A DNA stretch of 64,000 nt from the sequence record MK327935.1; one strand, 5' to 3'. Made by a program: the position numbers and the translations under genes. The notes under the pieces were generated by a model. It saw nothing but the letters and a program-made list of their open reading frames with translations, searched no databases and was not told the DNA's origin. Source of the DNA: Escherichia phage vB_EcoM_G2494. Of this stretch, positions 53,869 to 54,285 are shown piece by piece; position 1 is the first letter of the stretch, and each line of letters begins with the position of its first letter.

Positions 53869-54285
53869 TTAGAGAGATTCGGTAAAGGTACGAGCGATAA
53901 CATCACGTTGCTGGTCTGGAGTCAGACTATTGAAGCGCACTGCGTAACCAGAAACGCGAATTGTAAGCTGCGGGTACTTCTCAGGATGTTCAACCGCGTC
54001 AAGTAACATTTCTCGTAACAATACGTTAACATTTAGGTGCTGACCACCTTCGACAACAGGAGCACCATTATCTACAATGACAGGACGGAAGCTAGTTGTG
54101 TGCAGTGCCAGCGAATCGACGTCTTCTGCGGTGATCACATGATCTTCTGCGAAAGTTTTACTAACAATTACTTTAGCGCCGATCAGTGCTTTCGGTTCGG
54201 ATACCAGAATCATAGGAGCGAAGTGTCCACCGATAATAGTACCTTTATGCTCACCTTTCATGATTTGAATTGCTTTAAATTCCAT
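53869..54285 (-). CDS. autonomous glycyl radical cofactor (GrcA/YfiD-like)
   Basis: 138 aa; C-terminal half nearly identical to E. coli GrcA incl. glycyl radical motif RVSGYAVRF; T4 carries a homolog (Y06I). Confidence 0.85.

Follow-up and report, generated by a model that had tools for sequence, protein, structure and literature searches.

Only two glycyl-radical spare parts have been validated biochemically, YfiD (GrcA) of Escherichia coli and Y06I of phage T4 (PMC8683613; PMC13450708, a 2026 review). The PFL-activating enzyme (PFL-AE) puts a glycyl radical on T4 Y06I (Wagner et al. 2001, cited in PMC8683613). PMC8683613 and PMC13450708 describe both of these proteins as forming a complex, once activated, with pyruvate formate-lyase (PFL) that has been cleaved by oxygen, and as restoring its activity. 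YfiD's N-terminal half is needed for binding to cleaved PFL and for efficient activation, and is not needed for catalysis (PMC8683613; PMC13450708). In E. coli GrcA, this half is disordered in solution (PMC8683613). In the literature that we searched, we found no phenotype of a vs.6 deletion, and nothing specific on the in vivo role of a phage GrcA or on its role as an auxiliary metabolic gene.

We analyzed vs.6 in a 64,000-nucleotide stretch of DNA (the window) from Escherichia phage vB_EcoM_G2494 (MK327935.1). We consider it quite probable that this gene encodes a phage autonomous glycyl radical cofactor of the GrcA/YfiD type, orthologous to T4 vs.6, whose most likely task is to repair oxygen-cleaved host PFL. 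The grounds from this analysis are sequence identity, full-length homology, conservation, synteny, purifying selection, and the absence of a phage PflA. By analogy, the 138-residue variant in the window would carry out the same chemistry as Y06I and GrcA. T4 Y06I is, we infer, the product of vs.6, because each T4-type genome has a single match to the window protein (one place per record, by tblastn) and because RefSeq names T4 vs.6 "autonomous glycyl radical cofactor GrcA." The window gene is already known, as an orthologue of the T4 spare part that is annotated as such in public phage records. It adds nothing to existing knowledge, and the finding is real but ordinary.

Position and context of vs.6

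A sequence-only reading of the window had placed a gene at 53869-54285 and gave no strand. We found an open reading frame at exactly these positions (53869..54285) on the minus strand, with an ATG start and a stop codon at 53869-53871, which encodes the 138-aa putative GrcA-type cofactor. All of the features that follow are on the same strand. Residues 1-76 (54058..54285) are a phage-type N-terminal half that is homologous to the N-terminal halves of GrcA and T4 Vs.6. Residues 77-138 (53872..54057) are the C-terminal glycyl-radical domain, which corresponds to PflB 698-759 and GrcA 66-127. The radical loop RVSGYAVRF (residues 110-118) can be read directly from the sequence at 53932..53958, as can the GGT codon of the radical glycine, Gly113, at 53947-53949.

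Also read from the sequence is a Shine-Dalgarno element, AAGAGGTG, at 54290..54297, 4 nt 5' of the ATG. We grade this predicted ribosome-binding site as strong. A terminator scan identified an intrinsic terminator at 53825..53859, with the form AAGCCAATCC-AAAAA-GGGTTGGCTT followed by TTTCTTTTT. It has a 10-bp stem, and its stem-loop (53859-53835) is directly 3' of the stop codon. The records of phages G37-3 and GEC-3S also annotate a terminator at this place after vs.6. Thus, vs.6 is a small stand-alone gene with its own ribosome-binding site and terminator, and its product falls within the size range of about 120-140 aa that is expected for this family. We set aside two plus-strand open reading frames that overlap vs.6 (53797-54006 and 54037-54321), taking them for shadows of the minus-strand gene, which has strong support.

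We found no T4-type late promoter (TATAAATA) near vs.6: going upstream on the minus strand, the first site is 4.9 kb off, at 59164-59171, and this motif occurs less often than expected by chance across the window. In a consensus scan, matches to sigma-70-like promoters were all inside coding sequence. A scan of the whole window against Rfam gave no family at its gathering score.

RB49 and about 58 other phages share the 2.4 kb around vs.6 at 97-98% identity, and 63 Krischvirus-type records contain the surrounding region. From its sequence, we class the source phage as an RB49-like Krischvirus that is about 97% identical to RB49. The window protein is a 99.3% match to Vs.6 of RB49 and a 100% match to a protein of phage Skers that is annotated as "putative autonomous glycyl radical cofactor." The annotated gene order in RB49 is regB, three small open reading frames, nrdC.11, vs.6, another small open reading frame, vs.8, and endolysin, while the order in T4 is regB, vs.3-5, vs.6, vs.7, vs.8, and denV. 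The gene therefore has a conserved position within the regB-vs.8 block of T4-like genomes, as seen in both RB49 and T4.

The window protein also matches the profile of PHROG 1209 over the profile's full length (E = 3.4e-51, 173.5 bits; residues 3-138 against positions 1-121 of 121), and T4 Vs.6 shares this full-length match as well as the position between regB and vs.8. These comparisons identify vs.6 of the window as the Krischvirus orthologue of T4 vs.6. Using tblastn against the phage collection, we found homologues of the window protein in 1580 phage records. These span T4-like phages, T5-like phages (which have shorter forms), and some jumbo phages, with hosts that include Escherichia, Salmonella, Klebsiella, Aeromonas, Vibrio, and others. 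Among the phages of enterobacteria, a GrcA-type spare part is thus routinely found in the T4-like and T5-like groups and in some jumbo phages. In the truncated homologues from T5-like phages, the matches cover only residues 51-138 or 65-138 of the window protein.

Several public phage records label the gene as "pyruvate formate-lyase" or as "hypothetical protein." The former is a misnomer because just the end of the PFL profile is matched: of the 744 positions of TIGR01255, only 683-744 align, with a score of 88.4 bits (the cut-off is 994). A full-length PFL has about 750-850 residues, a ten-stranded barrel, and a pair of catalytic cysteines. Unlike PflB and TdcE, the window protein lacks the catalytic barrel and the Cys418/Cys419 pair. 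The main use of our finding is to correct the annotation of public records.

The radical domain and the N-terminal half

We compared the window protein with sequences from E. coli K-12, E. coli strain 5FA, and T4. Its last 62 residues are identical to GrcA of E. coli K-12 at 56 of 62 positions (90%), to T4 Vs.6 at 54, and to both PflB (698-759) and TdcE at 50. The domain is therefore nearly identical to the segment that PFL loses upon cleavage, and Gly113 corresponds to Gly734 of PflB. Altogether, 59 of the 62 residues are the same as in GrcA or PflB, and in one segment (REMLLDA..E) the match is to PflB and not to GrcA. The loop RVSGYAVRF is exact, with Gly113 as the radical glycine, and S112, G113, Y114, A115, R117, and F118 do not vary across 32 homologues. 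The sequence-only reading had described the C-terminal 60 or so residues as almost identical to GrcA, this loop included, and our alignments bear this out.

Searches of structures and families agree. With phmmer against the PDB, the best matches were GrcA (6owr, E = 5.8e-33) and PFL (PflB 698-759, E = 5.5e-27), while other glycyl radical enzymes (YbiW, CutC, and glycerol dehydratase) were far weaker (E = 1e-11 to 1e-7). The Pfam domain Gly_radical (PF01228) scored 61.3 bits, against a cut-off of 22.2. When the C-terminal half of the predicted structure was searched with Foldseek, it matched 6owr (E = 8.6e-6) and also 2pfl (rmsd of 2.7 Å over 50 residues). Judging from these comparisons, the resemblance of this domain to GrcA and PFL is far beyond chance. 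The earlier assignment of the protein as a spare part of the GrcA/YfiD type is thus supported by PHROG 1209, by PDB entry 6owr, by the Gly_radical domain, and by the fold.

The exception is the NCBIfam equivalog model for GrcA (TIGR04365), against which the window protein scored 133.8 bits over residues 37-138 only (the cut-off is 170). E. coli GrcA scores 234, but T4 Vs.6 (151.1) is also below the cut-off, which implies that the cut-off separates bacterial GrcA from the phage forms and does not delimit function. Apart from this score, the protein has all of the structural and sequence features of the GrcA family (TIGR04365 / IPR011140). It does not belong with GrcA2 or GrcA3, which are about 80 aa long and consist of the radical domain only: these share the glycyl-radical domain with the window protein but lack the N-terminal half, which is complete in the window protein. 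It is also below the cut-offs of NF008341 (84.7 versus 145) and NF038360 (106.1 versus 158).

Like the window protein, E. coli GrcA (YfiD, PDB 6owr, TIGR04365) is small and stand-alone, and the two proteins have the same radical loop and the same C-terminal tail. The window protein is 11 residues longer, and its N-terminal half is similar to that of GrcA at the level of profiles, not in pairwise comparison. Furthermore, unlike grcA, the window gene belongs to a lytic phage and is outside the anaerobic and acid-stress regulation of the host.

In pairwise comparison, we found no significant match between the N-terminal halves of the window protein and GrcA. The N-terminal half of T4 Vs.6 links the two, as it is 43% identical to that of the window protein (E = 6e-9) and also matches that of GrcA (E = 9e-5). 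When we aligned profiles of the N-terminal halves alone with hhalign (20 phage-type proteins versus 13 bacterial GrcA proteins), they were homologous with a probability of 96.6% (E = 5.5e-10, positions 2-78 versus 1-66). Phage and bacterial N-terminal halves have two landmarks in common, an initial (A/G)IQI and the motif ARxIV(S/A)K..(F/Y)xED. On this evidence, the N-terminal half is not a foreign domain but is homologous from end to end to that of GrcA. We also asked if it might mimic another part of PflB, and rejected this idea because there was no significant similarity (best E = 0.61).

The window protein and T4 Vs.6 share the phage-type N-terminal half (QIxxGxHKGTI ... ARxIVSKTFxED) that precedes the glycyl-radical domain. 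They differ in length, with 138 aa in the window and 120 aa in T4. Part of the difference is that the window protein has about 12 residues inserted after GTI, plus about 5 more around positions 56-60. Across the Krischvirus group, the insertion is about 10-15 aa, with about 5 more residues near residue 58, and it is absent from both T4 and GrcA.

The sequence-only reading had argued that the N-terminal half diverges from GrcA, so that the partner enzyme was uncertain. The divergence is genuine, in that there is no pairwise match to GrcA, but the argument is weaker than it was put because of the profile-level homology, the 43% identity to the N-terminal half from T4, and the 59 C-terminal residues that match GrcA or PflB. 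The similarity to T4 counts in favor of PFL as the partner because the T4 protein works with PFL and PFL-AE from E. coli.

We also predicted the structure of the window protein with AF2, using the alignment of 32 sequences (mean pLDDT of 77). The N-terminal half is predicted to be folded and rich in beta strands (pLDDT of 74-87), residues 71-90 are a linker of low confidence, and the C-terminal half has the helix / beta-hairpin / helix arrangement that is expected of a radical domain. For the N-terminal half, a Foldseek search of the PDB gave no fold match, only weak KOW-like matches of low probability. The predicted order may reflect the bound state of this region. Given the insertion, and given a predicted fold where GrcA is disordered, the binding behavior of the window protein could differ from that of GrcA.

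Selection, proposed function, and alternatives

Over the 62 codons of the radical domain, we compared vs.6 of the window with grcA, pflB, tdcE, and T4 vs.6. In these comparisons, synonymous sites are saturated (pS of 0.67-0.78), while pN is 0.10-0.14. Among 5426 E. coli genomes, the best DNA match to vs.6 is to pflB, at only 76% identity. The saturated pS, the low pN, and the DNA identity to E. coli of at most 76% imply that the gene is an old resident of phages and is under strong purifying selection. For the window allele, we rejected a recent capture from E. coli because of this low DNA identity and the saturation of synonymous sites. We also rejected a decaying gene fragment, because the protein is conserved while its synonymous sites are saturated.

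We propose that the protein would be made from a minus-strand transcription unit of the early or middle type. In the RVSGYAV loop, Gly113 would lose its pro-S hydrogen to host PflA, a radical SAM enzyme. If oxygen cleaves host PFL at Gly734, then residues 77-138 would dock where the truncated PflB has been left with an empty site, and perhaps in the paralogue TdcE as well, with the N-terminal half aiding both binding and activation. The radical would then pass from Gly113 to Cys419 of PFL, which would then again be able to convert pyruvate to acetyl-CoA and formate. The heptamer peptide RVSGYAV is a substrate of PFL-AE, and this heptamer is present in the window protein.

Because T4-type phages shut down gene expression in the host, any spare part supplied in the course of infection would need to come from a phage gene. 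The benefit to the phage would presumably be that fermentative ATP and acetyl-CoA continue to be made in a microaerobic infection after host genes, including grcA and pflB, have been shut off. If so, strictly lytic coliphages invest in sustaining the fermentation of their hosts under fluctuating oxygen, as in the gut.

As for the activase, a tblastn search of the phage collection with E. coli PflA yielded 24 records at a coverage of 80% or more. The full-length matches listed were host-derived, prophage-like, or unannotated fragments, and were not T4-like; among the matches listed, T4-like phages had partial matches only, with under 60% identity. Since no full-length PflA homologue was among the matches listed for T4-like phages, the spare part must rely on host PflA, barring cross-reaction with NrdG.

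NrdG is the activase of NrdD. The sequence-only reading had placed nrdD and nrdG within 33724-37497, and Pfam puts both genes there, on the minus strand. The activase of the anaerobic ribonucleotide reductase, nrdG (33724..34233), matches Fer4_12 (E = 4.4e-43) and has a CxxxCxxC motif; its score against Radical_SAM (23.3 bits) is below the cut-off of 29.5. The class III ribonucleotide reductase, nrdD (35635..37497), matches NRDD (E = 7e-175) and Gly_radical (82 bits), and its product has a glycyl-radical C-terminus of its own, RVSGYLG. Two unannotated open reading frames lie between these genes. That reading had also grouped vs.6 with nrdD and nrdG as a "glycyl-radical toolkit." All three genes are present, but they do not make up a functional module: vs.6 is 16 kb from the other two and in another transcription unit, and what the three share is an anaerobic glycyl-radical theme.

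Could Vs.6 serve an enzyme other than PflB? That other glycyl radical enzymes might have spare parts is considered conceivable (PMC8683613; PMC13450708), and the likeliest such partner would be the host 2-ketobutyrate/pyruvate formate-lyase TdcE. With 50 of 62 residues identical to each, TdcE and PflB are indistinguishable by sequence as host partners. Nevertheless, we think it improbable that TdcE or another such enzyme is the exclusive or main partner: the radical domain is closest to GrcA (56/62), whose demonstrated partner is PflB, and YbiW, CutC, and glycerol dehydratase match far more weakly. Furthermore, TdcE is a paralogue of PFL and is activated by the same PflA, so repair of TdcE would be a variant of our main proposal and not an alternative to it. 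Taken strictly, the toolkit idea would have Vs.6 repair the phage's own NrdD after activation by the phage's NrdG. The phage does encode both proteins, NrdD is also cleaved by oxygen at its radical glycine, and NrdD and Vs.6 share the RVSGY core. However, the C-terminus of NrdD (RVSGYLGSVDLRPFNHGKHSEMVNRVKHM) is unrelated to Vs.6 beyond RVSGY, which makes this role unlikely. The radical domain of NrdD also has a zinc ribbon that Vs.6 lacks, the domain of Vs.6 is instead 81-90% identical to PFL and GrcA, and the genes are distant and in different transcription units, so that we find the NrdD reading barely credible.

Another explanation is that Vs.6 is a decoy or inhibitor, which would sequester host PflA or occupy PFL and so redirect pyruvate metabolism without any repair. 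The N-terminal half does differ from that of bacterial GrcA and does carry an insertion. Yet a decoy would not need 59 of 62 residues that match GrcA or PflB under strong purifying selection, or a radical glycine and an entire loop that are invariant in 32 homologues, and T4 Y06I restores PFL activity in vitro (PMC8683613). We therefore consider a decoy very unlikely. More unlikely still, in our view, is that vs.6 is a functionless fragment captured from a host and retained as a place for homing endonucleases to land. A homing endonuclease gene adjoins vs.6 in some Krischviruses, where the 3' half of vs.6 has been replaced, and in T4 this half of vs.6 was copied recently from E. coli grcA. On the other hand, vs.6 in the window has an intact frame with a ribosome-binding site and a terminator, and combines a pN of about 0.1 with saturation at synonymous sites. 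Conservation of the gene extends to 1580 phage genomes of several families, and even the alleles that are linked to an endonuclease retain the radical glycine and an intact domain. Repair of oxygen-cleaved host PFL remains our preferred explanation.

Probable exchange of the 3' half in related phages

At the DNA level, T4 vs.6 is a chimera: the part that starts at about nt 205 and runs through the stop codon shares 170 of 174 nt with grcA of E. coli K-12 (pS of 0.08), while the part upstream of about nt 205 has about 50% DNA identity to grcA. This pattern indicates that the 3' half of T4 vs.6 arose by a very recent gene conversion from host grcA. In contrast, the window allele is only about 73-76% identical to any E. 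coli gene.

In four other Krischviruses (JK32, MIZ4, G37-3, and FL04), a gene for a 197-aa endonuclease with NUMOD4 and HNH_3 domains lies between vs.6 and nrdC.11. Just nine records have this NUMOD4-HNH endonuclease at 95% identity or above. In all four of the endonuclease-bearing phages, identity to the window is as low as 65-71% over the 3' ~210 nt of vs.6, while the 5' 207 nt is 92-98% identical and both flanks are about 97% identical. The left edge of the divergent tract varies between pairs of phages. From its sequence pattern, we interpret a divergent 3' tract beside an endonuclease gene as the signature of homing with co-conversion.

The homing tracts, together with the T4/grcA chimera, suggest that the half of the gene that encodes the radical domain acts as a recombination cassette, a suggestion that concerns these relatives and not the window itself. 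The Krischvirus insertion in the N-terminal half, which is predicted to be folded, might permit activation by, for example, NrdG. The joint proposal that the 3' half of vs.6 is an exchangeable cassette and that the N-terminal insertion alters the specificity for activase or partner is speculative, and we think it rather unlikely. If it were true, phages would keep their spare part matched to the PFL of their host by recombination, and homing endonucleases would exploit the DNA of the invariant radical loop as a target. The window, RB49, and KMB43 all have the endonuclease-free allele of vs.6, and in the window this allele is presumably cleavable.

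A homing endonuclease gene beside vs.6

In a minority of Krischviruses, vs.6 and nrdC.11 are separated by a 197-amino-acid homing endonuclease gene with NUMOD4 and HNH_3 domains. (It lies at 3465-4058 in L005, the locus from Shigella phage JK32, and at 1501-2094 in each of three other phage loci, L007, L008 and L009.) At a threshold of at least 95% identity, this endonuclease appears in just nine records. The corresponding site in the window is an 86-nt spacer (53783-53868), and the window's vs.6 is the endonuclease-free type of allele.

At all four loci that we checked, the 3' ~210 nt of vs.6 beside the endonuclease gene is a divergent allele, with 65-71% identity to the window, while the 5' half of vs.6 and both flanks are at 92-98% identity. 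The limits of the divergent tract differ among these loci. The endonuclease gene together with the swapped 3' tract looks like homing with co-conversion.

A host-like tract in the vs.6 of T4

We also compared the vs.6 of T4 (6558-6920 in the T4 locus, L002) with grcA of E. coli K-12 (5067-5450 in L004). The final ~174 nt of T4 vs.6 is nearly identical to grcA (170/174 nt; pS 0.08), but the 5' ~200 nt has only ~50% DNA identity. This combination suggests that the 3' part of T4 vs.6 came from the host's grcA by very recent gene conversion. The window allele has no comparable tract; no E. coli gene exceeds 76% DNA identity with it.

Genes near vs.6 and nrdG

Directly downstream of vs.6 lies nrdC.11 (53084-53782, minus strand). 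Its product is a nucleotidyltransferase of the RlaP type, within the DNA polymerase beta family (Pfam PF10127, 53.9 bits; PHROG 388). The gene is followed by two small tandem paralogous ORFs (52626-52886 and 52868-53062, minus strand; 40% identity over 63 amino acids, E = 4e-12). A second such pair (32717-33196 and 33186-33722, minus strand; 29% identity over 163 amino acids, E = 6e-13) lies directly downstream of nrdG. Among these four ORFs, those searched against Pfam had no match. Two more ORFs without a Pfam match, of 180 and 181 amino acids (34450-35534, minus strand), lie between nrdD and nrdG, so the reductase and activase genes are not adjacent in this phage.

The endolysin region

Upstream of vs.6, the window encodes an endolysin (54975-55364, minus strand) of the L-alanyl-D-glutamate peptidase type (Peptidase_M15_4), rather than a T4 e-type lysozyme. 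In JK32, KMB43, and FL04, a second, free-standing homing endonuclease gene, with HNH_3 and AP2 domains, lies between the endolysin gene and vs.8 (1742-2317 in L005; 2476-3051 in L006, another phage locus); this gene is missing from the window. In the window, the stretch that separates the stop codon of the endolysin gene from the start codon of vs.8 holds a GC-rich hairpin (ACGGGGAGA...TCTCCCCGT; 54935-54967, minus strand). The hairpin lacks a T-tract; instead of a terminator, it could be an element for RNA stability or processing.

Directly upstream of the endolysin gene are four consecutive short ORFs of 62-88 amino acids (55393-56168, minus strand), whose counterparts in RB49 are annotated as hypothetical. 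By eye, their products appear to be strongly hydrophobic and membrane-spanning, and they might be membrane proteins related to lysis or superinfection.
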